Shown in pieces: positions 3,874 through 63,836 of a stretch of DNA of 64,000 nt. Origin of the DNA: a virus (taxonomy: Duplodnaviria; Caudoviricetes). The notes under the pieces were generated by a model that saw only the letters and a list, made by a program, of their open reading frames with translations, ran no database searches and had not been told where the DNA came from. The DNA lies in the IMG/VR virus record IMGVR_UViG_2974751360_000001, positions 3,663-67,662 of that record. One strand, given 5' to 3'. Positions within the stretch are counted from its first letter, which is position 1; every line of letters starts with the position of its first letter. A program made the translations under genes and the position numbers.

Positions 3874-3879
3874 AGACGC

Positions 3880-19018: not shown

Positions 19019-19021
19019 AGC

Positions 19022-19063: not shown

Positions 19064-19104
19064 GTCCCACCGGGGAGGGCCATCACCAAGACCAGGAGAA
19101 GATC

Positions 19105-23400: not shown

Positions 23401-25873
23401 CGGCATCGGCACGGCCTGGGGACGACTGGTCGACATCGCGAAGACCCCTATCAACTGGGTGATCAACCACGTGATCAACGGCGGTATCGGTCGCGCCTGG
23501 AAGGCGGTCGACAACTTCCTCGGCGGGCACATGCCCGACTGGGTCGACGTCAGCCCGATCGGCATGGCCTCCGGTGGCGAGGTGCCGATGGCAGCCGGAG
23601 CGGTCCGAGGCAAGGACTCGGTTCGCATTCTCGGTATGCCCGGCGAGCACATGTGGGACGTGATGGACGTCGCCCGTGCCGGTGGTCAGCAGGCCATGTA
23701 CCGGATGCGCGACATGGTGATGAAGGGCAAGCCGTTCACCTGGACTCCGGCCGGACTGGCTGACGCCGAGGGCGACGGAGCGCTGCCGCGGTACGCCAAG
23801 GGTGGCGAGCTGTCCGCAGGCGACCGACTGGCTCCGCTCCCGGGCGAGGGTGGGCTCCAGCCGATCGCTCAGCTCATGGCGCGCATCATCAAGGGCACCT
23901 GGCCCAAGACGGTCACGTCCATCGGCGGCTACCGTCCTCCGGACGGCTACAACGAGCACTCATCGGGCCGCGCGCTCGACGTCATGGTGGCCGAGCTCGG
24001 GGGCAAGACCGGCGACGAGGTCACCGAGTTCTCGATGGCGAACCACCCGAACTATCCGGTGACGCACACCATCTGGAAGCAGCAGATGCACTACCCGCCG
24101 GACGGTCGCACCGAGGGGATGGACGACCGCGGGTCGCCGACGCAGAACCACATGGACCACCCGCACATCTGGTACGCGCCGAACCAGGGCCCGATCAACC
24201 CGAACATCATGCCCGACAACATCGCGTTCGGCGGCGTCACTGACGCCGCCGTCCGCAAGGGCATCACCGCGTGGGCAGAGAAGGCCTTCAACACCGCGCT
24301 CGCACCGGTGAAGAAGCTCCTCGACACCGCGGCGTTCAACCCTCCCCCGGAGATCAAGGCGACCCCGCGCGAGCTGTACAAGGGCATGGTCGAACCCGCG
24401 AAGGAGAAGCTGCTCGACAAGGTCTCCGAGCTGACCTCGGTCGAGGGCTGGAAGAACATGCTCGGCGGCGCGGTCGACAAGGTGAAGTCCGGCGCAGGCA
24501 ACCTCCTCGGCGGGTTGAAGCGTGTGCTCTTCGACACCGGAGGCGTCATCCGGCCGGGCACCACCGTCGTGCAGAACGACACCGGTCGCGACGAGTACAT
24601 GCTCAACCCGATGGAGACCGTCCTGCTTCGCGGGCTGGTCGCCGCCCTTCGCGGGATCGGGATCAACCCGGTTCTGCCGCAGCAGCAGCCGCTCACCCCC
24701 GATACCGGCGACAAGCCGCTTACTCCGGAGACCGGACCGGCCGACGTCAACATCGCTGGCGTCGGTGGCAAGTCGACGGCCCCCGGCGAGCTGCCGGTTC
24801 CCGAACAGACCGAGATCAAGCCGCCGACCGCCGCGGACCTCGACGACGGCCTGCCGGGAACCGGCTCCGGCGCGGCGACGATCCCGCTGAAGCGCAATCC
24901 GGACGGCACGTACACCTCGACCGACCCCGAGTGGGCCAAGCTCATCAAGCGGGAGTCCGGTGGCGACCCGACGGTCACTCAGAAGGTCACCGACGTCAAC
25001 TCCGGCGGTAACGAGGCCAGCGGATTGTTCCAGATCGCCAAGGGCACCTGGGCATCAAACGGCGGCACGAAGTTCGCGCCGACCGCCGGTGAGGCGACTC
25101 CGGAGCAGCAGGCCGAGATCGCGGCGAAGATCTTCAACGAGCAGGGTGGGTCCCCGTGGGGTTCCGGTGCCGGGCAGAACTTCGGCCGCGAGGACGAGGC
25201 GCTGCTGCGCAAGGGCATCCGTCCGGCCGGGACCAAGGACGACCCGATCTCGGTCACCGTGGATACCCCGTCGGATGATCCGTCGAAGGATTGGGCCACC
25301 ACCGCGGAGACCGAGCCCGGCGACAAGACCGGATCGGCGTACGGCCAGAACCTCCAGGGCGCGGCGATCGGCAAGGACGGCTCCTACAAGCCGGACAACA
25401 ACGTCCCGTCGGTGAACAAGGGCGGGAACATCGACACCAAGCCGATGTTCACCAACCCGTTCGAGACCTTCGAGGGCAAGCTCGGCATGGGGTTCGCGAA
25501 GAACGCCCCGCTCGGGATCGGCAGTCCGCAGGCCGAGATGCTGGCGAAGAAGGCCCCGGCCGTCACCGAACTCGCCAACGGCATCGCCAAGGCTGCCCCG
25601 GCATGGGGCGCGGCCCTCGCGGGCAACCCGGCCGCGCTCATCGCGAACATCGGTCAGGCGACCGGTCAGTGGGCGACCAAGACCGCGAGCGACTTCGCCA
25701 ACTACATCCCGGAGGCCGCTCCCGGAATGCTGGAGTCCGCGCTGTCGGCGATCGGTGGACCGCTGATTGGTACGGTGAACACCGGCGTCAGCACGGACGA
25801 ACTCATGTCCACGATGGAGGACGCGCAGAACCGGCAGATGCGCCGGACCAAGGCCGGACGCCGGAGGTACTGA
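20447..25873 (+). CDS. tape measure protein with C-terminal peptidase-like and Rpf-like transglycosylase domains
   Basis: 1808 aa Ala/Gly-rich helical repeats; EHSSGRALD...HMDHPH; RESGG...GLFQI...W...A..EQQ...QG.SPW. Confidence 0.93.
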   Translation: MAKTFLVGEGAVRLIPNAATFHKTARAKLAADPLHVGVELKPNMTGFTRDARAKLKTVEGLSVKVSLKPDVTGFAREAQAKIDATRDLKARVAVEARVDRGSVANAHREIQAQLSAMGPVRVSIESRVDDASLRRAIETLRARVAAANITANINSRNGRGPLGGMGDGGGGGGRGGSGRPVRKAAIATGTVMAPIVTQAAVGGLTALIGAASQAAGALGLLPAAATAAGAGLAAIAIGAVGIGGAFSALSDASKSAGTAVTQSASQQAAAQRGIEAADRGLATAHRGVTRALEDLNDARKDAVRRLRDMNDEMKMAPINEREAALAIKEAVRRVQEATASGDALEIEGAQIDLEKSQLQYDQLRKQNDDLANDVAEANRKGVEGDKQVIAAKDGVVDANNALKDAQDALTAAMESAANAANQMAGGVDKVAQAMDRLSPKAQQFVRQIHALGPAWTETRKFIQDALFNRLGDSVTKLAGVQLPVLRTGLAGIATEINGGLRGALATFSTEQAAMDFTTTLNNSRGMWAGIAQSFAPFAQAFMNVTTVGSTFMPRLGTAVSNMASSFKQFTDEARADGSMQEFFENSLTMAKQLGRILANVGAIIGEIFSAGAETGGGFLNTIETATGELRAFLGSVEGQEGLKTFFNGVKEAVQTLAPIITIVGDVLLTVLGPALTDLVIGMGPGLVAMFQGLGNGLAAIQPIMETVGVAFGQIGFELGKVFEVLGPVIAEVFAALAPAIGPLAALLGSIIKGLAPILTLVGGVVGALVGALAPAFQTITDALGPVIAGLVDALMPIIPPLAEAIGAMAGALAGVLAEIIGALAPVITQIATGFADLVIAILPIVPVFAELITSLLPGLMTVINAILPLFPTIVQALVSIVSFIVPILIPVLKVLSTIVSTVFTVIANVIGWAIRNIIVPVLTWLIKGITNVGDIAKWLWDNALKPVIDFIVDGWKWLWSMVEPVFDALRNGISRVGDFFSTVVDGIGTAWGRLVDIAKTPINWVINHVINGGIGRAWKAVDNFLGGHMPDWVDVSPIGMASGGEVPMAAGAVRGKDSVRILGMPGEHMWDVMDVARAGGQQAMYRMRDMVMKGKPFTWTPAGLADAEGDGALPRYAKGGELSAGDRLAPLPGEGGLQPIAQLMARIIKGTWPKTVTSIGGYRPPDGYNEHSSGRALDVMVAELGGKTGDEVTEFSMANHPNYPVTHTIWKQQMHYPPDGRTEGMDDRGSPTQNHMDHPHIWYAPNQGPINPNIMPDNIAFGGVTDAAVRKGITAWAEKAFNTALAPVKKLLDTAAFNPPPEIKATPRELYKGMVEPAKEKLLDKVSELTSVEGWKNMLGGAVDKVKSGAGNLLGGLKRVLFDTGGVIRPGTTVVQNDTGRDEYMLNPMETVLLRGLVAALRGIGINPVLPQQQPLTPDTGDKPLTPETGPADVNIAGVGGKSTAPGELPVPEQTEIKPPTAADLDDGLPGTGSGAATIPLKRNPDGTYTSTDPEWAKLIKRESGGDPTVTQKVTDVNSGGNEASGLFQIAKGTWASNGGTKFAPTAGEATPEQQAEIAAKIFNEQGGSPWGSGAGQNFGREDEALLRKGIRPAGTKDDPISVTVDTPSDDPSKDWATTAETEPGDKTGSAYGQNLQGAAIGKDGSYKPDNNVPSVNKGGNIDTKPMFTNPFETFEGKLGMGFAKNAPLGIGSPQAEMLAKKAPAVTELANGIAKAAPAWGAALAGNPAALIANIGQATGQWATKTASDFANYIPEAAPGMLESALSAIGGPLIGTVNTGVSTDELMSTMEDAQNRQMRRTKAGRRRY

Positions 25874-32124: not shown

Positions 32125-32289
32125 ATGTCGGAAACCGTTCACGCACAGTTCGATTCGCTGCCTGGTGTCGACGTCGTGCTCACCCGAGGACACGATGAGT
32201 TCGGCCCGGACTTCATCTCGGTTGAGTGCTACCGCGACGGCGAGATCATCCGTGGCGCCAACGGCGGGTTTAGCGGACCCGGGGCCTGA
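32125..32289 (+). CDS. small hypothetical tail-region protein
   Basis: GGGAG RBS; MSETVHAQFDSLPGVDV... Confidence 0.55.
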   Translation: MSETVHAQFDSLPGVDVVLTRGHDEFGPDFISVECYRDGEIIRGANGGFSGPGA

Positions 32290-33344
32290 TGTGGTCCCCT
32301 GACCCGGCGCCGGACGCCCCGGTCCACCCCGGCCTCGGTTGGTCGCCGACGGGTCCGGTCATCGAGCAGGACTCCGAGCTGGGATGGTGGGTCAAGCTCC
32401 AGCTCCTCGCGGTCGCGGAGGGGTACGGCGAGTTCTCGGCAGCCCTCGCGGCACATCTGCGAGCCACTGCGGAGGCAACCGGGTCGTTCCCGGCTGCCGC
32501 GGTGGTCCGACTCCTCGCGACGATCACCGGCACCGGGATCTTCCAGGCGACGGCCGCGGCGCACCTCACCGGGCAGTTCACTGGTCTCGGAGAGTTCGCG
32601 GCGCGGCTTGCCCTTCCTGCCAGCGCGAGCTTCACCGGCACGGGATCGTTCCAGGCCTCGGCGACAGCTCACCTCCTGGCGTCGATGGAAGGCCTCGGGT
32701 CGTCCACAGCGAGCCAGCTTGCACACCTCCTCGCCAGCTTCACGGGCACCGGTTCCTTCTCCGCGTCGGCCGCGTACAGCCCCGTCGCGCCGACCACCAC
32801 GACGATCACCACCGTCGGCGCTTTCACCTACCCGATCCCGGGGTGGAGCATCTTCATCGACGTCATCGGTCTCGGCGGCGGTCGAGGCGGCCAGACCGGA
32901 TCCGGCGCGAACAGTCAACCCGGGTCCGGAGGCCTCCCCGGAGAGTGGGCCGGGATCACCCTCCAGCGGGGCGTGGACATCCCCTGGACCGAGTCGCAAT
33001 TCACCGGCGTCGTCGGGGCTGGCGGCGCCGGGGGAGCGAACTCGGGCAACGCCGCGGGGCAACCAGGCGGAAACACGACGATCACCGCGTCGGTCGGCAC
33101 CCTCACCGCGGCCGGAGGGACCGGCGTCAACAGCGGATCAACGAGACGGGACGGCCCCGGACCAGGCAACTACACTTACCTCGGCACCGAGTACGTCGGC
33201 GGCGCGCTGTCCGACGGCAGCGGGCTCCCGGGGAACCCACCCGGCGGCGGCGGATCAGGTGGCAACGGCGGCATCTTCGGCAACAGGACCCGCGGCGGCG
33301 CGGGAGCGAGGGGACAGGTGTGGTTCAGAGCACGACAGTCGTGA
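32289..33344 (+). CDS. glycine-rich minor tail protein
   Basis: Repeated A.FTGTG.F units and Gly-rich C-terminus (GGGGSGG...GARGQVW). Confidence 0.75.
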   Translation: MWSPDPAPDAPVHPGLGWSPTGPVIEQDSELGWWVKLQLLAVAEGYGEFSAALAAHLRATAEATGSFPAAAVVRLLATITGTGIFQATAAAHLTGQFTGLGEFAARLALPASASFTGTGSFQASATAHLLASMEGLGSSTASQLAHLLASFTGTGSFSASAAYSPVAPTTTTITTVGAFTYPIPGWSIFIDVIGLGGGRGGQTGSGANSQPGSGGLPGEWAGITLQRGVDIPWTESQFTGVVGAGGAGGANSGNAAGQPGGNTTITASVGTLTAAGGTGVNSGSTRRDGPGPGNYTYLGTEYVGGALSDGSGLPGNPPGGGGSGGNGGIFGNRTRGGAGARGQVWFRARQS

Positions 33345-33619
33345 CGTTCGAGACCGAGCTGTGGATCGAGTTCGGCAGCTACGCGCTCATGCCGGTCGAC
33401 ACCGAGATCCTCTACAGCTCGATCGAGGACCGATTCATCGTCGCGGCGTGCGCCACCACCTACGACTACGGGCCCTTCTCCGACGGGTACGCCCCCGCCT
33501 TCGAGTTCGAAGGCCTTCGGATCTCGGCCAGTCTCTTCGGCGAGATCGACTCAGCCGTCGTCACCTGTATCAGCTCACCCAGCGGGGACGGCTCCCGCAT
33601 CACCACGATCAAGGAGTAG
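33341..33619 (+). CDS. hypothetical protein
   Basis: GTGA overlap; MTFETELWIEFGSY... Confidence 0.6.
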   Translation: MTFETELWIEFGSYALMPVDTEILYSSIEDRFIVAACATTYDYGPFSDGYAPAFEFEGLRISASLFGEIDSAVVTCISSPSGDGSRITTIKE

Positions 33620-48418: not shown

Positions 48419-48433
48419 CTGTTGACGTCAACT
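48419..48433. promoter_or_regulatory. TTGACGTCAA palindrome (operator-like)
   Basis: GTTGACGTCAAC in a 40-bp intergenic gap. Confidence 0.6.
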
Positions 48434-53741: not shown

Positions 53742-53770
53742 ACTGTACACGGTTGGTGTCAACCGGTCAA
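53742..53770 (-). promoter_or_regulatory. leftward promoter with variant palindrome TTGACACCAA
   Basis: TTGACC-17 bp-TACAGT on the minus strand. Confidence 0.7.
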
Positions 53771-54215: not shown

Positions 54216-55154
54216 TTATCCGATCCTGGTGATGCGAGCGACGGCGACGGAGCGGAAGCCGCCGCCGGTCTGGATGAAGTGGAGGATGCGCAGGTCTTCG
54301 CCGTGCTCCTCGGGATCGAACTCGGCGGGGGTGATGTGCGGCGGGTACTTCTCGGTCGACCCGTCGACCACGGAGGAGTCGATGGTCCCCGACAGCGAAT
54401 TGCGCCAGGTGATCTCGACATGGTTGTTCGACTTCCGGTTGACCCCGAGCTTGGTCAGGATCTCCTCGGAGGTGAGCGGGGACGCGACCGACGACCAGTT
54501 GCGATGCGGGTTGGTCTGCTGCTGGCGCACCGCGGCGTAGGTCTCCTGTTGCGAGAAGGTCGGATGGACCGCGTCGGCGGGCTTGGCCTTCTCCGCGGCG
54601 CCGATGTGCGCGAGGGCTTCGTCGGCGACGGCTCGATGGTCGGCCTTGGGGACGATCCCGAACGCCTCCGGGGTGGTCTCCATATGGGCGGCACTATGGG
54701 CGGCACTCTCGTCGCCGGTTTCCGTATGGGCGGCACTGGTGGGCGGCACGTCCTGGTGGGCGGCACTATGGGCGGCACTGGTGGGCGGCACTGGGGTGTC
54801 CTGCTCGGCCACCGGGCCTTCGTAGTCGACGAGCGACGGCGGCTTGACGTGGAAGTCGTTCTCGATCGCCTCGCGCACCGCGCCACCCTCGGTGTCCAGC
54901 ACGGTCTGAGTGCCGTCGAGCGCGACGTGGGTGACCTGATCGCTGTCGGTGTCCGGGTCGATGGCGTAGAAGGCCTTCAGCTCCTCTGCGCCCCAGTCGC
55001 CGTCGAGGTCGCGCCGCAGCGTGACAAATGCGAACTTGCGGTTGGCCTTCGGCCCCTTCGTGGCCTCCCAGCCGTACTTGGCGGCGTGGTCGGTGATCGA
55101 GTTCGCGAGCTCCAGCGCGTCGATCTTCGCCTGCTCGAAGTCTTCAGGTGACAT
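54216..55154 (-). CDS. hypothetical protein with internal repeat linker
   Basis: AGGAG RBS; SAAH/VPPT repeats. Confidence 0.75.
   Translation of the reverse strand: MSPEDFEQAKIDALELANSITDHAAKYGWEATKGPKANRKFAFVTLRRDLDGDWGAEELKAFYAIDPDTDSDQVTHVALDGTQTVLDTEGGAVREAIENDFHVKPPSLVDYEGPVAEQDTPVPPTSAAHSAAHQDVPPTSAAHTETGDESAAHSAAHMETTPEAFGIVPKADHRAVADEALAHIGAAEKAKPADAVHPTFSQQETYAAVRQQQTNPHRNWSSVASPLTSEEILTKLGVNRKSNNHVEITWRNSLSGTIDSSVVDGSTEKYPPHITPAEFDPEEHGEDLRILHFIQTGGGFRSVAVARITRIG
54685..54791. repeat. seven copies of TGGGCGGCAC
   Basis: Copies start at 54685, 54697, 54727, 54740, 54757, 54769, 54782. Confidence 0.9.
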
Positions 55155-55323
55155 GGTTCTCCTATTTTCGTGAAAACTGTTATCTCACATAATTATTCAA
55201 ATTCAATATCATCATCAACATCCGCGAAATCGGCTGTACCGGCGTACCGGGGGCTCGGGCGGGCGGGGCGCGGGCGCGCGTCGCGGGGCACGGACCACGG
55301 CGATGTGTCATGCGCGCGGTCGA

Positions 55324-55375
55324 TCGAAAGTCTGTTCGATGGATCGAAAGTCTGTTCGATCGAACCTGTGTTCGA
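55324..55375. promoter_or_regulatory. three tandem actinobacterial LexA (SOS) boxes
   Basis: TCGAAAGTCTGTTCGA twice and TCGAACCTGTGTTCGA; consensus TCGAAC-N4-GTTCGA. Confidence 0.65.
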
Positions 55376-55621
55376 TCGGGTGTCGGTCCGGCCGGGGTGA
55401 CCCTCTCGCGCGATTGGCTGCGCGGTCGCCGTGTCCTGACACCCGGCGCGCTAACCCTGTCGCCGTGCGAGGCTCTGGCCTCGCCGTGTCCCGCTGTTGA
55501 CTTGTCGAAGAACTTGCGCCGTCTGGCGCGTTGGAACAACTGTAACCGTTAGTGGGCAACCGACGCAACTCCGACCGGTGACCCGGCCGTGTCGCGAACG
55601 TCTGCGCTGTTCATGAGGGAC

Positions 55622-55670
55622 ACGGTACGTGTCCTCTCGGTTGACGTCAACCGTTCACAGTGCTTACTGT
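55622..55670. promoter_or_regulatory. divergent promoter pair sharing palindrome CGGTTGACGTCAACCG
   Basis: Plus strand TTGACG-18-TACTGT; minus strand TTGACG-17-TACCGT. Confidence 0.65.
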
Positions 55671-55711
55671 GTCCTCACCGGCCGCACACGGCGACCGGAT
55701 GAGAGGACACC

Positions 55712-56515
55712 ATGACACTCACACTCACCCCGCTCACCGGAGCCGACGCGCAGCGTTTCGACGGCGCGCAGTTCGACGACGGGACCGCCTACCGGGTCGC
55801 CGATACCCGCGTGTCCGGCGTCGTCGCCGCGCGCCGGATCCTGTCGGGCAACGGATCGCCGACGCACCGGCCGATCGACCCGACAACCGACGCGGCGCGC
55901 GAGGACACCCCGACCGCGCTGTATCCCGCGCTGTGGCTCACGTTCGGCGCGCAGGCGCGCGGGACCTACCTGAACACTCACGACACCGTCGAGATGTACC
56001 CGGAACCGTTCAACGTCAACGGCCGCGACTATCACCGGGTGACGGTGCACGTTGATTTCTATCCGGTCGGTGTCGCCGGTCTCGACGTCGATTACAGATC
56101 ACCCCAATCGGTGTCGCCGTGGAACCGGTACCCGGTCGAGACCGCGCGAAAGCGTGCCCGGGATCTCGCCGACGGCGTCGGGGGTGTCCTGTTTGTCGAG
56201 AGCGTGCCCGGGACCAACGGCGAGCGCTCGCACGGTGTGTTCATCGCCGACGTCTCGCAGTATGACCGCGGCGAGATGACAGAAGCGGGCCGACGGACGG
56301 CCGAAAGGATCGCCGTCGAGATCCTGCGCGCACAGATCGACGCCGGTGTCGAGACCGATTGGCTCGACGACGTCGCCAATCACATCAACGGGCAGATCGC
56401 CGCGGCCGACGAAATCGCGCACCGGTGGAACGTCGAGAGCGCGAGGCTTCAGAACCTGCGCGTTGCGGCGCGCACCGCGGCCGTCGCCGGTCACAGTGTG
56501 CGGGTCGCCCGGTGA
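55712..56515 (+). CDS. hypothetical protein
   Basis: GAGG RBS; 267 aa; 1 Lys. Confidence 0.75.
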   Translation: MTLTLTPLTGADAQRFDGAQFDDGTAYRVADTRVSGVVAARRILSGNGSPTHRPIDPTTDAAREDTPTALYPALWLTFGAQARGTYLNTHDTVEMYPEPFNVNGRDYHRVTVHVDFYPVGVAGLDVDYRSPQSVSPWNRYPVETARKRARDLADGVGGVLFVESVPGTNGERSHGVFIADVSQYDRGEMTEAGRRTAERIAVEILRAQIDAGVETDWLDDVANHINGQIAAADEIAHRWNVESARLQNLRVAARTAAVAGHSVRVAR

Positions 56516-56904
56516 CCGCGGCCGTCGCAACGCGCACCGGGACCGGTCCCCTCGCGATTGACGTCGACCACGTCGGCGAGACCACGGCGACGCTCACCGC
56601 GGCCGGGTACGTCTGGCAAGTGATCGCCGACGCCGACGACACCGGCGCCGACCGGGTGCGTGTCGTGTGCCACGGTCGCCGGGTGTCTCGACTGTTCGAC
56701 CGGTGGCAGTACCCGCGGGCAGACGTGTGGTCGGCCGTCGGCGAGTACGCGGTCGGTCTCCTCACCGGCGCGCAGCGGGTGACACTCACCCTCACCCCGG
56801 CCGACCGCGGCGCCATATCATTCCGCGGCCGACGGCCGTTGCCCGATCACGAGCGGCACGCCGTCGAGAGCGCAGCGCGGCACTACTCCCCCGATCTCTT
56901 CTAA
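56512..56904 (+). CDS. hypothetical protein
   Basis: GTGA overlap; 0 Lys. Confidence 0.65.
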   Translation: MTAAVATRTGTGPLAIDVDHVGETTATLTAAGYVWQVIADADDTGADRVRVVCHGRRVSRLFDRWQYPRADVWSAVGEYAVGLLTGAQRVTLTLTPADRGAISFRGRRPLPDHERHAVESAARHYSPDLF

Positions 56905-56931
56905 CCCTCACTCCCAGGAACAGGACACGCA

Positions 56932-57690
56932 ATGCTGATCTCGACCGAAAACGGCGTCACCTCGACCATCACGACACGCACCCGCTATGCCTACGGCTCG
57001 ACCACGGCGACCGGGACACCCCGCACGTGTGAGGTCATCGTGCGCAGCGGGTACGGCGCCGACGCGATACCGGCCGACCTCGACGCCGTGCGCGCCGGTG
57101 ATCTCGCACCGCAGGCGTGGAACGTCGCACCGACCAACACCCGCGAGTACACGGTTACCCGTTTCATCACGGCGAGCGCTGCGCAGCGTGAGGTGACTTC
57201 ACTCCGACGCGCAGGTTTCAACGCGCAACGCGACGCACGGTCGACACCGGCCGACTACAAACGGCGCAACGGTCCCGGCGCCTACTACACCGGTCCCGAC
57301 GTCGTGCGGCTGGTAGCGCGCACAAACCGGGTATTCGTCGCATGGCGCCGACAGGGCATCACGTGGTGGTACGACGTGACCGTGATCGACCACGGCGCCT
57401 ACTACACGCACCGCAGCGGGGTGCGCGAGATCGGTCACGTCGGCGACTATCTCGACGCCGTGCGCTGGGAAGGCGCGCGGTCGGGGGACACGGTCCCGAC
57501 GGTCACGGCCGGGCGATCGGGGGACCCGATCGCTGTTCGGTTGCACGGGCGAGATCTCGCCAATGTGGCTCAGTGCGAGGGGTGCGGCCGTTTCTGGGAT
57601 GACGCGCACACGTCGAGCGTCACCCCGGCACCGTCGGGCCGGTGCCCATTCGAGTATGACCACGGACAACCGATCGCCCGTTGGTACTGA
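56932..57690 (+). CDS. hypothetical protein with C-terminal Zn-ribbon-like motif
   Basis: CEGCGRFWDD...TPAPSGRCPFEYDH; repeated leader. Confidence 0.7.
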   Translation: MLISTENGVTSTITTRTRYAYGSTTATGTPRTCEVIVRSGYGADAIPADLDAVRAGDLAPQAWNVAPTNTREYTVTRFITASAAQREVTSLRRAGFNAQRDARSTPADYKRRNGPGAYYTGPDVVRLVARTNRVFVAWRRQGITWWYDVTVIDHGAYYTHRSGVREIGHVGDYLDAVRWEGARSGDTVPTVTAGRSGDPIAVRLHGRDLANVAQCEGCGRFWDDAHTSSVTPAPSGRCPFEYDHGQPIARWY

Positions 57691-57719
57691 CACCCTCACT
57701 CACAGAACAGGATTGAGCC

Positions 57720-58178
57720 ATGACAACAACAATCACACCGGGTGCGCTCTCGCGCGCACGTCTCGACCGCGCGTTCGCTGCGGCCGATTGGCATCGCGTC
57801 GGCACGCCGTCCGTGGTCGACGTGTATGAACGGGTGATCCAGCGGGATTACGGCCGGGACCGTTGGTTGGTGCAGGTGTATCGACACCCCAACGGACGGG
57901 TAACCGGCGCAACGTTTTTCGACGGTGACGGGATCGCGTACCCGTTTGACGGCCGGGGTGTCGTGTCGCAGTTGCTCGATTTCCTCGCCGGGGTGCGTTT
58001 CGACGTGATCACGTACAACGGCGCAGTTCCGACGTTCGGTGTGCGCTACGGCCGGTCGTCGCTTCACGTGCGACCGACACGGCGCAGCGCGCGAGATCTC
58101 GCACGACGGCACAGCGCAGCGGGCGAGAGCGTCGAGATCCGGCGCCGGGACCCTCGCGACACGGCCGCGGCCGGATAG
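57720..58178 (+). CDS. hypothetical protein
   Basis: Repeated leader with AGGA; 0 Lys. Confidence 0.7.
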   Translation: MTTTITPGALSRARLDRAFAAADWHRVGTPSVVDVYERVIQRDYGRDRWLVQVYRHPNGRVTGATFFDGDGIAYPFDGRGVVSQLLDFLAGVRFDVITYNGAVPTFGVRYGRSSLHVRPTRRSARDLARRHSAAGESVEIRRRDPRDTAAAG

Positions 58179-58179
58179 T

Positions 58180-58208
58180 TTGCACGGTTGACGTCAACCG
58201 CGTAACGT
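58180..58208 (+). promoter_or_regulatory. promoter with TTGACGTCAA in the spacer
   Basis: TTGCAC-17 bp-TAACGT. Confidence 0.7.
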
Positions 58209-58253
58209 GTCCCTCATCGGGTCACCGGGACCCGCTCACGAAAGGATCGACCC

Positions 58254-59087
58254 ATGACACTCACACACGTTGTCACCGTCCGCGACACCGTCACGTTGCG
58301 CCGGGATCTCTCGGCTACCGGGTACGTCGGCGCAGTTCACCCCGACGGCGTTACCGTGCGGGTGTCCTGGGAAGGCGCCGGGACCTCGACCCTCGAAAAC
58401 ATCGCCGACCTGTTCTATATCCTCCCCGCCGATCACGTAGGCGAGCGTCACACGGTTGATCTGCGGCCGGGCATCCCGACCGTGTGCGGCGAACACATTG
58501 TCGAGTACTCCGAAGAGTACGGCGACGACGAATACGTTGGGACCTGCGCGCACCCGGCCGGTCACGACGGCGACCACGCCGTCGAGAGCGTCGAGATCAC
58601 TCGCCAGTACTCCGACGGGACCAAATACGTCGAGACGTTCACCCGTAGCGCAACGGGCGAGTACACCACGGCCGCGGGTGAGATTGTTGACGCAACCGAC
58701 GCCGATACGCTGCGCGCGGCCGTCGAGTCGATTGACGCTCACTACGGCGCCGACGTCGAGACCGACCCGCGGTGCGTTGCCTGCGGTGAGCCGATCGACT
58801 ACTGCCAAGGACACGGCGAGATCGGCGATCCGGTCGGCGCGGCGATCCTCGACGCGCACGACGACGGCGACCACAACAACTGTCACCCGCTGGGCTGCGA
58901 TGAGACGCCGGTCCCGGCCGTCGGCGCGTCTGTGTTCGTCACCGACCCGGCCGCACCCGGTTTTCACGGGACCATCACCGCGGTCGACGAGATCTCGCGC
59001 ACCGTCACCGTGTCGACGTGGACACGCGACGGTGAGCCGATCAATTACGGCGTGGCCGTGCGCGACGTCGTCGAGATCACCAAGTAG
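58254..59087 (+). CDS. acidic Cys/His-rich hypothetical protein
   Basis: CAHPAGHDGDH; CVACGEPIDYCQGHG; GAAAGGA RBS. Confidence 0.75.
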   Translation: MTLTHVVTVRDTVTLRRDLSATGYVGAVHPDGVTVRVSWEGAGTSTLENIADLFYILPADHVGERHTVDLRPGIPTVCGEHIVEYSEEYGDDEYVGTCAHPAGHDGDHAVESVEITRQYSDGTKYVETFTRSATGEYTTAAGEIVDATDADTLRAAVESIDAHYGADVETDPRCVACGEPIDYCQGHGEIGDPVGAAILDAHDDGDHNNCHPLGCDETPVPAVGASVFVTDPAAPGFHGTITAVDEISRTVTVSTWTRDGEPINYGVAVRDVVEITK

Positions 59088-59149
59088 ATCAACCCTCGCG
59101 GCCGGGTCACCTCGACCCGGCCGCACCCCTCACAGAACAGGAACATGAC

Positions 59150-59701
59150 ATGCGGATCCACACGACACTTACCTACGGCGATCTCTCCGACGCACTGCGC
59201 GCAGCAAACGAGATCACCGCGCAGATCTCGACCGACGTCGCGCCGAACAGTCACCGCGACGAGTACCGGCCGCACACGGTCACCCCGCTGCATTTCGAGC
59301 GATGCAGCACACATGGTTCACGTACTCACTCGCGCGCGTTCGACGTGATGTTGTCCGGCGACGCGACGAACCATCACAACACAGGTTGTTACGGCGCCGG
59401 GAACGATTACGCGGCGACGTGGGATCAATGGGGCCTATTCCTGTCGGAGTTGTTCGCGAGGGATGAGTACATCCGCATTCCGCAGATCTATCACGACGCC
59501 GAACACTTCCATTGGGCAACCGGCGACCGGTATCGGCGCGAGATCTGGACACCGGCGCAGTATCACCGGCGTCACGGGTGGACGTTCTCCGGTGAGAGCG
59601 TCACCGGCGCGTACACGGTGAGTGAGTGCCGCGCCGACGCCTGCGCAGCGATCACCCGTCGTGTCGCGTGGGGCCGTAAGTGGTCGGAGATCTCGCAGTG
59701 A
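59150..59701 (+). CDS. hypothetical protein
   Basis: HGSRTH..AFDV.L; AATWDQWGLFL; repeated leader. Confidence 0.75.
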   Translation: MRIHTTLTYGDLSDALRAANEITAQISTDVAPNSHRDEYRPHTVTPLHFERCSTHGSRTHSRAFDVMLSGDATNHHNTGCYGAGNDYAATWDQWGLFLSELFARDEYIRIPQIYHDAEHFHWATGDRYRREIWTPAQYHRRHGWTFSGESVTGAYTVSECRADACAAITRRVAWGRKWSEISQ

Positions 59702-59865
59702 GGGCGACCGAACGTCGCGCGCTGCGCCGGATCACGGCCGACGCGCTCGCCGGTCTCGCAGCGATCCCGGCCGACACCGCTCACTACTGGCAAGCGCTCG
59801 ACACCCTGCACACGGCGCGCGCTCACCGTCGCGCGCTACTGATCTCGAAAGGCGAGGACCGATGA
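59698..59865 (+). CDS. small hypothetical protein
   Basis: GTGA and ATGA overlaps. Confidence 0.55.
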   Translation: MRATERRALRRITADALAGLAAIPADTAHYWQALDTLHTARAHRRALLISKGEDR

Positions 59866-60554
59866 ACGTCACGACACCCGACGGCCGGGTGATTGGCCGC
59901 GTGGATCTCACCCCGACCGACGTCGCAGCGCTCGCACACGGTGTCGGCGCCGGTGTCGAGTCACGGGTGCGCGCTCTCATCGCCTCGCAGCGCGCAGCGA
60001 TCGCAACCGGCGGCGGCTGGACACCGGGACCTCGACCCGCGGCCGACACGGCGCGCGAGGACATCCCGACCTCACCACGTCGGCGCCGTTGGTGGCCGTG
60101 GGTCGCCGGTGCGCTGTTCGCTCTCGCGTTGATCGGCTACGTCACCGACGAGGAGACCGACACCGGTGCCGCTGCGCCGACCTCGACCGGCGAGACCGTC
60201 ACCGTCGCGCCGCAACCGGCCGACGCACCTCGCGCAGTACCGGCCGCGGACGGTTCAATCCTTGTCGGGACCGTGGTCGTCGACAACGTATTCGACCGTG
60301 ACTCACCGCTGCGATCCCGGTTCGCCGGTGTCCTGATCTCGCACGGCGTCGCCGGGACCTCGGGCACCGAACTCGACGCGAACGTGCGCGACGGTGTGAC
60401 TTTCTGTCGAGATCTCGCCGTCGGCAACCTCACCGCGCAGCGGCACGCCGACGTCGTGACCGGGACCGCGGACGCTGCGACGTCATACGGTGTCGGAAAA
60501 CAACGGCGCGCAGTTGTCACCGCTGCGCTCTCGACCCTCTGCCCTGCTCTGTAA
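59862..60554 (+). CDS. membrane protein with DUF732-like C-terminal domain
   Basis: RRRRWWPWVAGALFALALIG TM; GVTFCRDL...LSTLCP. Confidence 0.65.
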   Translation: MNVTTPDGRVIGRVDLTPTDVAALAHGVGAGVESRVRALIASQRAAIATGGGWTPGPRPAADTAREDIPTSPRRRRWWPWVAGALFALALIGYVTDEETDTGAAAPTSTGETVTVAPQPADAPRAVPAADGSILVGTVVVDNVFDRDSPLRSRFAGVLISHGVAGTSGTELDANVRDGVTFCRDLAVGNLTAQRHADVVTGTADAATSYGVGKQRRAVVTAALSTLCPAL

Positions 60555-60579
60555 CCCTCACTCACACAAAGGATTAGAC

Positions 60580-61110
60580 ATGCATACTCGACAGACACCA
60601 TCCGGCGACGATTGGGACGTTACCCGTTTCCTCACCCTCGACGACGTCGCGACGTTTCTCGACCACGGCCAGACGCCCGCGGGACCGCGCAGCGGGTACG
60701 GCGAGTTTGCGCTACCCGTGCGGCTGCGCTGCGCCGTCGGCGACGACGGCCGGGTCCTTATCCGGCGCGTCTATGTGCTGAACTATGGCAACGGGGGAGG
60801 CACGCCGTACGTGTACGGCCGGGTGTCCGGTGAGCGGGTGCGTTTCTACCTCGACCCGCATGTACTCGCGTGGATTGAAGAACTGCGCGAGGTCGGTTGT
60901 ACCTGCGTCGGTGTCGGTCTGCGAGACCTGCGCGCAGCGCGCGCGACAGACGCGCAATGGGCGAGGGATCACGGATACACCGAACGTCTGCGTGAGGACG
61001 GTTCACCACACCGGCGCCTGCGCGAGTATCTGACGTCACGGCCGGATGACCGGGGCCGGTTGACGCGCGAGGGTCGGCTCTACTTCGCGCAGCGGGCGAG
61101 CGCACTGTGA
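60580..61110 (+). CDS. hypothetical protein
   Basis: Repeated leader; RRVYVLNYGNGGG motif; 0 Lys. Confidence 0.7.
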   Translation: MHTRQTPSGDDWDVTRFLTLDDVATFLDHGQTPAGPRSGYGEFALPVRLRCAVGDDGRVLIRRVYVLNYGNGGGTPYVYGRVSGERVRFYLDPHVLAWIEELREVGCTCVGVGLRDLRAARATDAQWARDHGYTERLREDGSPHRRLREYLTSRPDDRGRLTREGRLYFAQRASAL

Positions 61111-61325
61111 GCGCGGGCGAAGTGCGCGACGTGATGCACGACGTCGTCGGTGTCGGCGATCTCATCATTTGTCGCGGCGAGTATCACCGGGTGACGGCCG
61201 TCGTCGAGTACGGCCCCGGCGACGCACCGGACACGGCGCCTATGAGGCGGGATTGGTGGGTGCGGGAATATCGGACGGCCGTAGGTAGTCGGTGGCGAGG
61301 CTTCCCGCAACGGCCGACCGACTGA
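61107..61325 (+). CDS. small hypothetical protein
   Basis: GTGA overlap. Confidence 0.55.
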   Translation: MSAGEVRDVMHDVVGVGDLIICRGEYHRVTAVVEYGPGDAPDTAPMRRDWWVREYRTAVGSRWRGFPQRPTD

Positions 61326-61375
61326 CTGACATCGCGAGACCTGGACACCCGGCGTGAACTGCGCCGGGTGTCTAC

Positions 61376-61404
61376 TTGTGTCGGTTGACGTCAACGGGTA
61401 ATGT
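61376..61404 (+). promoter_or_regulatory. promoter with TTGACGTCAA in the spacer
   Basis: TTGTGT-17 bp-TAATGT. Confidence 0.65.
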
Positions 61405-61451
61405 CCGGGGTGTCGGTGAGAGACACCGGCGCACCCCGAAAGGATCGACCC

Positions 61452-61802
61452 ATGACACTCAATCGCCTCGCCGCCAATCGCGAAACCATCGCCCGTGTGC
61501 AGGCAACGCGCGGTCTCACCGTGTCCGAACGCCTTGTCGCCGGTCCGGCCGTCGCCGATGCTCGCGAGGCCTCGCGCAACGGCTGGACAATCACGTACCT
61601 CGACCCCTACGCGCTCGCCGTGGTCGACGCTCGCGACGGTTTCACGGTCACCGCGCAGTACTCGCGCGCCAGCAACGGCGTCACGTTCGCTGAGACCTCG
61701 CACGGCGGGAACACTCGACAGGTCGGCCGACGCAACGGCGTCACGCTGCGCGAGCAACTGCGGACCATCCTCGCGCCGATCACCCCGGCGTCCGACAACT
61801 GA
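61452..61802 (+). CDS. hypothetical protein
   Basis: GAAAGGA RBS; 0 Lys. Confidence 0.7.
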   Translation: MTLNRLAANRETIARVQATRGLTVSERLVAGPAVADAREASRNGWTITYLDPYALAVVDARDGFTVTAQYSRASNGVTFAETSHGGNTRQVGRRNGVTLREQLRTILAPITPASDN

Positions 61803-61811
61803 TCACCCCGG

Positions 61812-61841
61812 CGCCGGGACACGCACTGTGTCCCGGCGTTT
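61812..61841 (+). terminator. hairpin plus TTT (terminator or processing site)
   Basis: CGCCGGGACAC-loop-GTGTCCCGGCG-TTT. Confidence 0.5.
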
Positions 61842-61879
61842 CCTCATCTGACAACAACCGATCTCGAAAGGATCACCCC

Positions 61880-62401
61880 ATGACACACAACAACCTCGCA
61901 GTCGGCGACCGGGTCACGGTCGCAGTGACGGCCGCAACGGCTCACCTCACCGGACACACGCCGCGCGTCGAGACCGGGCACGTGTTCCGCGTCGAGAGCG
62001 TCGACCGGGATACGGCCGTTGTCACGCCGGATTACCCGATGCTGTACACGGCGCCTCATCAGACGGTCGTCGCCGTCGACGACTGCGCGCCGGTCACTCA
62101 CCTGTTCACAGTGCGCCGGTTGTCCGCGTTGAACGTGCGAGCGCTGCGCGAGGCACGCGACGCCGGGCAACTCACCGGCGTGCAGGACATCACCCCGACC
62201 ATGGTCACGTTCTACGGGAACACACCGGCCGACGTGATTGTGCGTCTCGACATCGCCCGGGATCGCCTCGCGTCGGTGTGGGGGACCCGCGGACACCCGG
62301 TTGCCTCACTCCCGGCCGTCCGTCGGAAACTCGACCGCGCAGCGCGAGGCGAGGGCACCGGCGCCGTGTCGGCACGCGAGATCTCGCGGGGTGATCGGTG
62401 A
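61880..62401 (+). CDS. hypothetical protein
   Basis: GAAAGGA RBS; 173 aa. Confidence 0.7.
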   Translation: MTHNNLAVGDRVTVAVTAATAHLTGHTPRVETGHVFRVESVDRDTAVVTPDYPMLYTAPHQTVVAVDDCAPVTHLFTVRRLSALNVRALREARDAGQLTGVQDITPTMVTFYGNTPADVIVRLDIARDRLASVWGTRGHPVASLPAVRRKLDRAARGEGTGAVSAREISRGDR

Positions 62402-62943
62402 TGTTTCGTTGCCAGAACTGCGGCGAGCACACCGTCGCCGAACCACTCGCCCGTCACTGCGAGACCTGCGCAGCGTTGCGGATCGCTTTCGGCGAGGACA
62501 TCGCGCACGGCCTCGAGAGCGTCGCGCGCGGGTACGTCGACGCGCTGTGCTGGACACAACCGGATTACTACGGCGACGGCGACGACAACGGCGACGGCGA
62601 GGATCGAACGTTGCGAGATCTCGGCTACGGGTACGGCGATCTCCACCCCGGGACCCGGGACCGGATCACGGCCGAACTGTCGGCCGTTGTCGCAGCGCAC
62701 CCGTTGGCCGTGCGCATGTACGGCGCAGCTCGGACTTTCAACGCCGGTGACGGCGACGTCTGGGAACACTTCGGACATGACTACCTGCTCACTCGCGACG
62801 GTCACGGCGCCGGATTCTGGGACCGCGGGTTAGGCGATCTCGGCGAGTACCTGTCGACCATCGCCGGTAACGCAGGCGATCACGTCGAACTGTGGCGAGA
62901 CGCTAACGGTCTCCTCACCGACGGCGACGACGGCGACGGTTGA
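62398..62943 (+). CDS. conserved phage hypothetical protein (GHDxxLTRxGHGAGFWD motif)
   Basis: YVDALCW...GHDYLLTRDGHGAGFWDRG. Confidence 0.75.
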   Translation: MMFRCQNCGEHTVAEPLARHCETCAALRIAFGEDIAHGLESVARGYVDALCWTQPDYYGDGDDNGDGEDRTLRDLGYGYGDLHPGTRDRITAELSAVVAAHPLAVRMYGAARTFNAGDGDVWEHFGHDYLLTRDGHGAGFWDRGLGDLGEYLSTIAGNAGDHVELWRDANGLLTDGDDGDG

Positions 62944-63235
62944 TACCCTCGCAGCGCTCGCGCGCCGGTGTCATGTCCCGGTGACGTGACGCGACACCCG
63001 CACCCCGGTTCGACTTCGGTCGGCCGGGGTGTCTCGCGTTTGGCGCCGTGTGCGGCGTGTGAGCGCGCAGCGCAGCGGGTGAGGGTGATTGATCCCGGCG
63101 AGGCGAGATCGGCCGCGTGTGGGGATCTCGCGGCGCACACGGGCCGGTGTGGTCGGTCGGGTGCGCAGGCGAGGGGTGACACGGGTAGGGGTGTCCTGGG
63201 AGGGGTGTCTATACACGGGTCGAGATCTGCGCCGT

Positions 63236-63412
63236 TGAACGATTGAAACGTTTCAATCGACCACGGTATCGACGGGTGAGGGTGAGCGCAGATAGATATA
63301 TGAATGAGAGGGGATCTATATACATGCGAGGAAATGTGAAAAATGAACGATTGAAACGTTTCAATTCCCTATTTTATCGAGGCTGGTCATTTCGCAGATA
63401 GATATGAATGAA
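63236..63412. repeat. duplicated unit of about 107 bp with palindrome ATTGAAACGTTTCAAT, in an AT-rich island
   Basis: TGAACGATTGAAACGTTTCAAT at 63236 and 63344; CGCAGATAGATA(TA)TGAATGA at 63287 and 63393. Confidence 0.8.
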
Positions 63413-63561
63413 TAGAAAAATGATTCTTAGAATTGATTGTAATAGGCATTGTATTGGGGGGGGGTAGGGGTCCTATATAGGGGTATTTATGCATATTCCA
63501 ATATATTTAGATGTTCTAACTATATTTGTTGAAATAATTCTGAGATATTTCGAGAATTAGT

Positions 63562-63590
63562 TTGCACAATTGACGTCAACTGTGTAAGGT
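63562..63590 (+). promoter_or_regulatory. promoter with TTGACGTCAA in the spacer and AT-rich upstream element
   Basis: TTGCAC-17 bp-TAAGGT. Confidence 0.7.
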
Positions 63591-63632
63591 AATAGGTGTA
63601 AGGCAAACACAGAAACGAAATGAGGAAACGAA

Positions 63633-63836
63633 ATGATCGCAACAATCGACACCCCCGCAACCGGTACCGTCACGGCGCAGTTCGACACCATGGGGGAGGC
63701 ATCCGAATGGATCGTCGACGTGGTGCGAGCGCAGTACGGCCCCTCACGTGACGGGGTGCGGATCACCGGCGAGGGCCTGCGGGGTGAGTTGGAAGACGAC
63801 ACCTACGGCGTGATCGGGACATGGTCGCTCGCCTGA
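63633..63836 (+). CDS. small hypothetical protein
   Basis: GAGG RBS; 67 aa; 0 Lys. Confidence 0.65.
   Translation: MIATIDTPATGTVTAQFDTMGEASEWIVDVVRAQYGPSRDGVRITGEGLRGELEDDTYGVIGTWSLA

Follow-up and report, generated by a model that had tools for sequence, protein, structure and literature searches.

The window, by which we mean the whole stretch of 64,000 nucleotides analysed here, belongs to a Gordonia terrae phage of the genus Kablunavirus, and no integrase is annotated in its relatives. Between positions 55712 and 63836, at the right end of the genome, lies a block of 14 rightward ORFs, for which the gene calls were transferred by mapping from the annotated relative Buggaboo. Gene 1 (55712..56515; + strand, as are all 14 genes and the promoter-like units below) encodes 267 aa with 1 Lys and 27 Arg (pI 5.6; phrog_26936). 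All nine members of its family, with identities down to 34%, have 0–3 Lys and 25–32 Arg, and the AF2 model (pLDDT 88) has an alpha/beta fold with a C-terminal 67-residue helical hairpin, for which no match was found among solved folds. Gene 2 (56512..56904) encodes 130 aa with 0 Lys and 15 Arg (phrog_13959), gene 3 (56932..57690) 252 aa with 1 Lys (AAA), 29 Arg and a Cys-rich C-terminus (phrog_15177), and gene 4 (57720..58178) 152 aa with 0 Lys and 24 Arg (pI 10.9). The Cys/His-rich product of gene 5 (58254..59087) has 277 aa, 13 Arg, a pI of 4.4 and 2 Lys, one of which is the final residue. A protein atlas search returned no match above 0.81 for gene 3 and none above 0.79 for gene 5. Gene 6 (59150..59701; 183 aa; phrog_18547) has a single Lys codon, 20 nt ahead of the start of gene 7, and the only one in gene 7 (59698..59865; 55 aa), an AAA, falls within the GAAAGG ribosome-binding site of gene 8. 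Gene 8 (59862..60554; 230 aa, 1 Lys, 20 Arg; phrog_16405) is a membrane protein according to the annotation of relatives. No Lys is encoded by gene 9 (60580..61110; 176 aa, 27 Arg), gene 10 (61107..61325; 72 aa) or gene 11 (61452..61802; 116 aa), and 1 Lys by gene 12 (61880..62401; 173 aa; phrog_13451). Gene 13 (62398..62943; phrog_20867 and phrog_1915) has 0 Lys, a length of 181 aa with the GTG at 62398 as start (155 aa in the protein database entry), the invariant family motif GHD..LTR.GHG.GFWDRG and an all-alpha AF2 model (pLDDT 92), again with no match among solved folds. Gene 14 (63633..63836; 67 aa, 0 Lys, pI 4.05) is the final gene ahead of the genome end.

No two block proteins were alike by BLAST, and their pI values span 4.05 to 11.16. 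Scans of ten block proteins against Pfam and of ten proteins against NCBIfam gave 0 matches each, and the Pfam scan of 20 other window proteins gave nothing relevant to lysine modification or tRNA. We give almost no credence to an artefact in which the ORFs are not genes, or have been assigned a wrong frame or strand, and the proteins are never made. Long spurious ORFs do occur on both strands in high-GC genomes, but in 13 block genes the differences from Buggaboo number 144, 115 and 377 at codon positions 1, 2 and 3, and the ORFs must be real genes in the stated frame because the differences pile up at the third position. Moreover, a codon model blind to Lys placed the annotated frame top of six for every block gene in Buggaboo, the same genes appear in the curated annotations of seven relatives (Buggaboo, Kabluna, Emianna, GTE8, Skysand, Commandaria and Fury), and two products were modelled with the high pLDDT values given above. 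The block holds no fewer than 14 genuine protein genes, none of them related to another, in about four units.

Promoter-like units were defined from repeat family D6, a pattern search and an alignment of upstream regions. Unit 1 (55629..55661) belongs to repeat family D6 and contains the perfect palindrome GGTTGACGTCAACC at 55639-55652, 60 nt upstream of gene 1. Unit 2 (58176..58208) consists of TTTGCA, an 18-nt spacer with the palindrome at 58186-58199, and TAACGT; in unit 3 (61383..61396) a palindrome with 1 mismatch lies between TTGTGT and TAATGT; and unit 4 (63558..63590) consists of TTTGCA, the palindrome variant AATTGACGTCAACT and TAAGGT. Allowing up to 2 mismatches, the palindrome pattern was found at 8 sites, versus 0.38 expected. 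The original prediction had called the block promoter-rich, which a generic promoter scan did not bear out (2 sites versus 1.1 expected), but the four units do lie ahead of block genes. Each of the roughly four gene units appears to be headed by a promoter-like site with a putative palindromic operator.

Lysine content and composition of the block

The block proteins contain 8 Lys in 2,331 aa (0.34%), with none in seven of the 14 and 1–2 in each of the other seven, exactly as the original prediction had counted; its figure of about 13 Lys in 312 aa for the leftward neighbour gene (54216-55154) was also recovered (13/312). By comparison, Lys accounts for 777 of the 17,542 residues encoded by the 72 non-block genes of the window (4.43%; binomial p = 7e-35), and when all 86 window genes were ranked by Lys content the bottom 15 included all 14 block genes. 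The lysine-desert criterion of Szulc et al, 2023 (at least 150 aa, with a continuous Lys-free stretch of at least 50% of the length) selected 9 of 9 block proteins of that size versus 3 of 34 from the other window genes, and continuous Lys-free stretches of at least 150 aa were present in 6 of the 9 block proteins of that size versus 1 of 34 elsewhere in the window. In the concatenated block, Lys-free runs reach 530 aa. The depletion spans the whole pI range and all protein types seen, namely the annotated membrane protein, the all-alpha model and the helical-hairpin model.

A frame-independent nucleotide bias did not explain the depletion. The 59 non-block genes within the GC range of the block have 4.49% Lys, and outside the block gene GC and Lys content are uncorrelated (rho 0.06). 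Shuffling bases within codon positions for each block gene (1000 rounds, lowest count 24) gave an expectation of 39.4 ± 5.5 Lys codons versus the 8 observed (p ~1e-9). Relative to the rest of the genome, AAG occurs in the block at 0.03x in frame and at 0.54x and 0.84x in the two out-of-frame readings. The sum of Lys and Arg is 10.77% in the block versus 11.34% elsewhere, showing that Arg replaces Lys one for one, and the sum of Asp and Glu is 12.8% versus 13.6%. The depletion works at the codon or residue level, without a nucleotide-level cause.

Substitutions among related genomes point the same way. Among substitutions that involve Arg, exchanges with Lys numbered 5 of 342 within the block and 165 of 707 outside it (Fisher p = 5e-25; counts pooled over six related genomes and not independent). 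Arg sites in the block change freely to other residues and almost never to Lys. We conclude with high confidence that the lysine residues of the block are under negative selection that is still operating.

As had been predicted, five of the 8 remaining Lys codons are AAA, but nothing special can be read into this surplus: the residual codons of six genomes taken together comprise 29 AAA and 59 AAG (33% AAA), matching a third-position bias that is relaxed throughout the block (GAA 27%, CAA 29%). The last tenth of the protein is enriched in residual Lys (19/79, pooled over six genomes), and some residual codons fall inside the ribosome-binding site used by the downstream gene. These data, with seven proteins keeping 1–2 Lys and residues persisting at C-termini and in ribosome-binding sites, are consistent with a graded cost for each lysine. 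Met is also avoided, more weakly than Lys (internal ATG 0.22x; exchanges of Leu, Ile or Val with Met 25/651 in the block versus 194/1812 elsewhere), and Glu and Gln show a parallel, weaker avoidance.

Distribution of the depletion among phages

Homologues in related phages were not normal in Lys content. Five more Emilbogenvirinae genomes, which represent four named genera, also have few Lys in the corresponding block (0.3–0.9% versus about 5%). Block gene content differs among the genera and the depletion persists: the five relatives carry 25 block genes from 14 families that have no homologue in the block of the window, and these 25 encode 26 Lys in 3,352 aa (0.78%). Relatives keep up to 5 Lys in one block protein. 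Across the six genomes there are at least 28 unrelated Lys-poor families. In GTE8, Lys amounts to 5.2% in the leftward genes, 0.94% in the block and 5.1% in the subsequent rightward genes, giving sharp edges on both sides. The depletion goes with genome position, not with gene family.

The trait extends through the Zierdtviridae, on hosts of three genera. Milder depletion was found in the equivalent blocks of Rhodococcus phage ChewyVIII (3.8-fold), where the first gene is annotated as Ocr-like antirestriction, and of the C. glutamicum phage P1201 (2.4-fold). No Lys-poor block was found in the M. smegmatis phage D29, whose right-end genes, which we take to be early, include gp88 and gp89 with 7.8–7.9% Lys. 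The same was true of EMsquaredA, a Gordonia phage of equal GC that infects the same G. terrae strain (best log-likelihood ratio 7.6 versus 57–64 here). Set against the Pup systems of the hosts, depletion is strong in the six Gordonia phages, intermediate in ChewyVIII and P1201 and absent from D29 and EMsquaredA, in what is too small a sample, without phylogenetic control. A need imposed by the host on all phages is not supported, since D29, on a host with the full Pup system, and EMsquaredA, with the same host and GC, lack such a block.

What the depletion may reflect

The conserved shortage of Lys resembles the outcome of selection for evading something that targets lysine. Of the original prediction, what the data support is a depletion that is frame-specific, independent of GC, conserved in relatives and maintained by ongoing selection against lysine residues, and each of the three refuting conditions that it had named was checked and none of them refutes it. 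Its points on the AAA excess and on promoter richness were weakened. We regard it as very unlikely that the composition is non-adaptive, arising in fast-evolving accessory genes that drift under GC-rich mutation pressure or share a low-Lys structural class. Several features are of the kind that drift would leave: block GC is above the rest at codon positions 1 and 2 and below it at position 3, codon adaptation is weaker, the residues with AT-rich codons (Phe, Met, Ile, Asn and Lys) are all reduced, as are Glu, Gln and Leu, and Thr, Val and His are raised. The gene 13 family is moreover Lys-poor everywhere (median 1.3% in 100 homologues), including proteobacterial phages, where two of three homologues examined have only 2–3 Lys. 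However, Lys falls 13-fold in the block versus 1.3-fold to 4.5-fold for other residues with AT-rich codons, with Tyr even rising, and the position-specific base composition of the block itself predicts 39 Lys, not 8. The near-absence of changes from freely varying Arg sites to Lys, the 4.68% Lys of small hypothetical genes in the left arm, the equal-GC phage EMsquaredA and the long Lys-free helices in the confident models of genes 1 and 13 likewise speak against drift.

We tentatively favour the reading that block products face covalent attachment of something to their lysine side chains, with ligation of Pup by PafA as the prime candidate; removal of Lys would then be an escape. In the host lineage PafA would ligate Pup, after which Mpa and the proteasome would degrade the tagged protein, and Gordonia terrae presumably carries pafA, pup, mpa and prcBA. 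Conjugation or acylation of lysines by some other system would account for the data just as well. A protein with 0–2 Lys would acquire tags at a far lower rate than the usual protein with about 10. The block and the terminase genes occupy opposite ends of the genome, so the block is probably first into the cell and first expressed, at a time when host proteostasis would still be intact. The large and specific depletion, the preserved sum of Lys and Arg, the ongoing selection, the indifference to protein type, the tie to position with sharp edges, the action at codon or residue level, the fit to a graded cost for each lysine, the published precedent of lysine deserts in Mycobacterium phages, and the Ocr-like gene that opens the block of ChewyVIII all count for covalent modification. 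The text of PMC8223512 describes a full Pup-proteasome system in M. smegmatis and also covers M. tuberculosis, S. coelicolor, R. erythropolis, Frankia alni, C. glutamicum and M. luteus, with a subgroup of these species having no proteasome genes, in which the text of PMC10665810 places C. glutamicum. Against modification stand D29, which lacks a Lys-poor block on a full-Pup host, EMsquaredA, which lacks one on the same G. terrae strain, and P1201, depleted although its host has no proteasome subunits. M. luteus is a further member of the proteasome-lacking subgroup. Nor would escape from Pup explain the parallel avoidance of Met, Glu and Gln, and the final-residue lysine of gene 5 should be exposed.

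An unlikely alternative is that Lys codons are avoided since the block is translated while tRNA-Lys is scarce, which could result from an infection-activated host anticodon nuclease or toxin or from the phage's own shut-off. Nucleases specific for tRNA-Lys exist (PrrC, PARIS AriB, MazF-mt9), the depletion is in-frame only and hits both Lys codons once the relaxed codon bias is allowed for, Arg is a natural substitute, and an ARAGORN search of the 64 kb window gave 0 tRNA genes (the first ~3.7 kb of the genome lie outside). Yet Lys codons persist in 7 of 14 genes, two of these codons lying 14–20 nt ahead of the next start, a place at which ribosome stalling would prevent coupled translation, and relatives tolerate up to 5 in one block protein. 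In addition, replication and structural genes need about 4–5% Lys soon after, no RNA ligase, kinase-phosphatase or other RNA-repair or tRNA-related domain was found by Pfam in 30 window proteins, and EMsquaredA shows no such avoidance on the same host. It is distinctly improbable that the lineage protects itself from its own weapon, a product that attacks proteins through their lysines (by modification, cross-linking or degradation) or turns host tagging onto host proteins, sparing the Lys-free proteins made with it. The trait does track the phage lineage rather than the host, being found in Zierdtviridae on three host genera and absent from the unrelated same-strain phage EMsquaredA and from D29. 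However, the scans of 30 window proteins against Pfam and of ten against NCBIfam revealed no fitting enzyme domain, later Lys-rich phage proteins would suffer too, and block gene content differs between genera with the depletion unchanged.

Whether the agent is a tagging system or loss of tRNA-Lys, it is conceivable, if far from assured, that a whole expression class of the phage subfamily is built without lysine, its first products being hidden from tagging or translatable without tRNA-Lys. All operator-controlled right-end block proteins would then qualify regardless of fold or ancestry, and protection would last until one block product disarms the tagging or tRNA-Lys system. If true, this would be amino-acid exclusion as counter-defence at the level of the transcription unit. 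Lysine deserts as such have been published: the text of Szulc et al, 2023 (PMC10665810) reports more lysine-desert proteins in Mycobacterium phages than in Escherichia and Bacillus phages, as a pan-proteome frequency, and proposes Pup avoidance, a result that the text of a 2026 review (PMC13696103) describes as confounded by GC and untested. In both cases, phages of actinobacterial hosts encode proteins with long Lys-free stretches (9 of 9 block proteins of at least 150 aa qualify), but here the deserts form one contiguous block of one genome, in Gordonia phages, with the remainder of that genome as GC-matched control, and the effect is far stronger and tied to position rather than family. We found no literature report of confinement to a single gene block, and the texts of PMC10665810 and PMC13696103 mention no block-level or expression-class pattern, although supplements may list such proteins.

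The block also shares features with other known systems. Toxin catalytic chains that cross the ER membrane are Lys-poor and Arg-rich, and lysine-less viral proteins also occur. Like the block, these toxin chains carry Arg for Lys with charge kept, read as escape from lysine-directed proteasome tagging, but they are single proteins facing eukaryotic ubiquitination, whereas at least 14 unrelated proteins in one phage block are involved here, in a bacterium; toxin catalytic subunits are mentioned in the text of PMC13696103. The attack point in the phage–host conflict would be lysine-specific, as it is for T4 and T5. T4 counters PrrC by RNA repair and T5 counters PARIS by a tRNA-Lys variant, and doing without Lys codons would add a third route round such nucleases, beside repair and replacement. 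In contrast to T4 and T5, the present phage has no tRNA gene or repair enzyme seen in the window, and half of its block genes have Lys codons. T5 pre-early genes and T7 gene 0.3 (Ocr) are first-entering early sets that neutralise host defences; we know of no amino-acid exclusion in either. The block differs from them in that we infer its early expression, and is like them in having small genes at one genome end, mostly without assigned function, under their own (here putative) promoters. A further likeness to T7 is that ChewyVIII heads its equivalent block with a gene annotated as Ocr-like.

Lysine content of the right-end block

The window matched Gordonia terrae phages of the genus Kablunavirus (Zierdtviridae, Emilbogenvirinae), with 90% identity over 92% of the query for Buggaboo and 95% identity over 77% of the query for Kabluna, and represents the final 64 kb of a genome of ~67.7 kb. 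Small genes, followed by structural and lysis genes, run rightward up to ~36.9 kb, replication genes run leftward up to 55154, and a divergent control region lies between 55154 and the lysine-poor block, which runs rightward from 55712 to the genome end. The small left-arm genes include 1711-1944, whose product has 100% identity to Buggaboo gp7, a protein with a HicA-like toxin annotation.

When the gene calls of Buggaboo were transferred to the window, the rightward stretch 55712-63836 comprised 14 ORFs. These contained 8 lysines in 2,331 aa (0.34%) and 7 of the 14 proteins had none, while the adjoining leftward gene had 13 lysines in 312 aa; all three counts bear out the original prediction. 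The 72 remaining window genes had 4.43% lysine (binomial p = 7e-35 for the contrast). Left-arm small hypothetical genes had 4.68%, so the depletion is not general to small unknown genes. A comparison with 59 non-block genes in the GC range of the block gave 4.49%, and gene GC did not correlate with lysine content (rho 0.06). Shuffling each gene within codon positions predicted 39.4 ± 5.5 lysine codons for the block (minimum 24 in 1000 shuffles) versus the 8 observed, and AAG occurred in frame at 0.03x the genome level, versus 0.54x and 0.84x out of frame. A frame-independent nucleotide bias, named at the outset as a competing explanation, therefore fails, since the depletion is in-frame and both the GC-matched genes and the shuffle disagree with it. 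The lysine depletion of the block is neither composition nor chance.

The same shuffle null was too low for the non-block genes (window 1-55154), with 509 ± 20 lysines predicted versus 777 observed; the contrast is thus two-directional, non-block lysine lying above its own codon-position base composition. AAA did account for 5 of the 8 lysine codons in the block, but the excess read into this did not survive as a signal, being a small-sample effect over a generally relaxed third-position bias (29 AAA and 59 AAG in six pooled genomes). AAG-specific avoidance was rejected, because the pooled AAA share of 33% of residual lysine codons, from counts that are not independent, resembles the A-ending share of the block's Glu and Gln codon pairs (GAA 27%, CAA 29%). 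Avoidance of an mRNA motif was discarded as well, given that AAG is hardly depleted out of frame and ACA is 6.4-fold enriched, as was foreign origin, with the block mean GC of 0.678 falling within the 0.564-0.723 of other genes and at least 28 families carrying the trait. TAT (4.2-fold) and TCA (3.6-fold) were also enriched codons in the block. A second, small lysine-poor patch was located in the tail region at 32125-33619, where a minor tail protein of 351 aa, with abundant Gly, Ala, Thr and Ser, had 1 lysine and its two small neighbours had 0 and 1; the patch has the appearance of the low-complexity composition usual in fibres.

Coding status and residue substitutions

The block ORFs are genes. 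Differences from Buggaboo numbered 144, 115 and 377 at codon positions 1, 2 and 3, respectively, and in a lysine-blind codon model the annotated frame was the best of six for every Buggaboo block gene, with weaker adaptation than elsewhere. Confident AlphaFold models were obtained for two block products, one all-alpha (pLDDT 92) and one alpha/beta with a long helical hairpin (pLDDT 88). No function could be assigned to block proteins by family, atlas or fold search: Pfam and NCBIfam each gave 0 matches for 10 proteins, PHROGs returned families of unknown function plus 'membrane protein', and protein atlas scores were at chance level (≤0.81). For two block models, Foldseek found nothing in the PDB at E ≤ 0.001, and the best VIA-align Z scores were 3.6 and, for colicin N over 90 aligned residues, 6.6, both under the tool's stated noise level.

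Lys and Arg together came to 10.77% of block residues and 11.34% of those in other genes; for Asp and Glu together the figures were 12.8% and 13.6%. Hence, arginine stands in for lysine one for one. In alignments with six relatives, 5 of the 342 block substitutions that involved Arg were exchanges with Lys, compared with 165 of 707 in other genes (Fisher p = 5e-25, for a pooled and non-independent count). Avoidance of Glu, as seen in exchanges with Asp (63/335 versus 394/1048), and of Met, as seen in exchanges with Leu, Ile or Val (25/651 versus 194/1812), was weaker than that of lysine; internal ATG stood at 0.22x. The pI of the 14 proteins spanned 4.05 to 11.16, and paralogy was rejected, with no BLAST matches among them.

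Besides lysine, internal Met was 4.5-fold down in the block, Gln and Glu were about halved and His was doubled (3.4% versus 1.7%). Met was also avoided as a replacement for Leu, Ile and Val, and no reading offered here accounts for the Met, Gln, Glu and His shifts. Among pooled residual lysines, 19 of 79 were within the last tenth of the protein; in the window, two residual lysine codons lay 14-20 nt before the next start, within ribosome-binding sequence, and another residual lysine was the terminal residue of its protein. Block genes had a common translation-start context, CTCAC ... GAAAGGA or ACAGGA ... ATGACA, shared at 55686-55732, 56906-56950, 57694-57740, 58228-58273, 61426-61471 and 61854-61899, and 5 of the 14 proteins began with Met-Thr.

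Recurrence of the block and probable selection against lysine

Normal lysine content was not found in homologues from related phages, which were lysine-poor too (0.30-0.94% in Gordonia relatives). Buggaboo gp81-94 had 7 lysines in 2,366 aa (0.30%) and the Kabluna block 0.33%. The Emianna block had 17 in 2,494 aa (leftward genes 4.9%) and that of GTE8 18 in 1,915 aa (5.2% in leftward genes, 5.1% in the rightward genes that follow), while Skysand, Commandaria and Fury (Pleakleyvirus) had 0.91%, 0.85% and 0.79%, respectively, with 4.67%, 4.97% and 4.95% in comparison genes. Milder values were obtained for two Zierdtviridae of other hosts, ChewyVIII of Rhodococcus (1.60%; comparison genes 6.09%) and P1201 of Corynebacterium (2.65%; comparison genes 6.46%), which had 2 of 10 and 1 of 13 genes in common with the window's block, by weak BLAST matches. 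A milder lysine-poor run of 14 genes was also seen in an unrelated Mycobacterium phage cluster, at the right end of Cjw1 (gp127-140; 1244-5676 of its sequence, L007), with 1.7% lysine and 6.0% in the adjacent genes, and the phenomenon may recur outside Zierdtviridae.

All 9 members of the family of gene 1 (55712-56515, 267 aa, phrog_26936), down to 34% identity in a search of 1.84 billion representatives, had 0-3 Lys and 25-32 Arg. The family of gene 13 (62398-62943, phrog_20867/phrog_1915) was lysine-poor almost everywhere, so its homologues are a weak test as a natural experiment. Across five relatives, 25 block genes, which fall into 14 BLAST families, lacked a homologue in the window's block. 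They had 26 lysines in 3,352 aa (0.78%), matching the 0.80% of 34 shared block genes; the trait therefore goes with position or expression class and not with particular families.

Other phages were scanned by a log-likelihood ratio for a contiguous lysine-poor gene run on lysine-blind gene calls. Version 3 of the gene caller recovered 88 of 93 Buggaboo genes and version 4 recovered 81; versions 1 and 2, along with the first one to trim overlaps, failed to find 20-30 of these genes and were dropped. No lysine-poor block was detected in D29 of M. smegmatis (best ratio 8.4; right-end genes 7.8-7.9% lysine), and the best ratio in EMsquaredA, from the same G. terrae strain (GC 0.666), was 7.6 versus 57-64 for the window and Buggaboo. 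RER2 and Feastonyeet had modest blocks only (10 and 24, rough figures from version 4).

The proteins of this gene class are very probably under selection against lysine. As its cause we tentatively favour, at somewhat under even chances, exposure of the block products to a lysine-directed covalent process, for which ligation of Pup, the lysine tag of actinobacteria, would be the obvious candidate (the Gordonia Pup system is putative). Three points favour this reading: arginine is substituted for lysine in a one-to-one manner, each additional lysine seems to add to the cost, and the idea has published precedent (PMC10665810, PMC13696103). Against it count the lack of a block in D29 and EMsquaredA, the fact that a phage whose host has no proteasome is still mildly depleted, and the Met avoidance, which it leaves unexplained. 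The other mechanism initially put forward, that the block is translated independently of tRNA-Lys, appears unlikely, and self-immunity to a lysine-directed activity of the phage lineage itself is more doubtful still; Pfam searches of 20 other window proteins gave no lysine-modifying or tRNA-directed enzyme. Non-adaptive drift or a structural class is about as improbable, or slightly more so, and an artefact is hardly credible.

Lysine avoidance by actinobacterial phages as an escape from Pup tagging has already been proposed, and lysine deserts have been described for Mycobacterium phages at the pan-proteome level (PMC10665810); a 2026 review (PMC13696103) regards the proposal as confounded by GC content and still without test. 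In the article texts searched, only lysine-desert papers came up, and none described a purge restricted to a single contiguous gene block whose own genome supplies the GC-matched control. The block is free of the GC confound, since lysine stands at ~4.4% in the rest of this genome, where GC is the same. It also offers a tractable system of 14 small proteins, with the phages and host strain G. terrae 3612 named in public records. Should Pup not be responsible, the block would implicate some lysine-directed activity new to phage-host conflict; whatever the cause, a contiguous lysine-free gene run may serve as a simple sequence signature of early, host-facing phage genes.

Putative control elements and timing

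The description of the block as promoter-rich was not supported by a generic sigma-70 scan, which was at chance (2 sites versus 1.1 expected), but a palindrome-bearing unit precedes each of the genes starting at 55712, 58254, 61452 and 63633. In the last three units, the palindrome lies within a 17-18-nt spacer between two hexamers, TTTGCA- or TTGTGT-like and then TAACGT-, TAATGT- or TAAGGT-like, while the unit upstream of 55712 has the palindrome without clear flanking hexamers. Judged from this arrangement, the units may be operator-controlled promoters. The 14-bp palindrome GGTTGACGTCAACC had 8 sites with ≤2 mismatches versus 0.38 expected (409-422, 23542-23555, 48420-48433, 53751-53764, 55639-55652, 56556-56569, 58186-58199 and 61383-61396) and probably serves a single phage regulator as its operator. 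Most sites were intergenic, and besides those in the block there were some in the left arm and among the leftward replication genes.

We infer early expression of the block because the terminase genes are at the other end of the genome and because an Ocr-like gene heads the ChewyVIII block. The latter gene, gp86 (18931-19470 of the ChewyVIII sequence, L020), starts the equivalent right-end block and is annotated as an Ocr-like antirestriction protein, with 1 lysine in 179 aa; its position supports a counter-defence role for such blocks.

ORF 55310-55552, the counterpart of Buggaboo gp80 and annotated as a gene in relatives, was negative in all six frames in its Buggaboo copy and contains three tandem 20-21-nt repeats at 55320-55376; it is doubtful as a gene and looks like control region instead. 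No gene was called in window 62944-63632 (~690 bp), and the Buggaboo annotation has nothing at the equivalent position. GC is lower here (0.624 over the last 2 kb), and two 37-nt repeats, at 63236-63272 and 63344-63380, are centred on the palindrome TTGAAACGTTTCAA.
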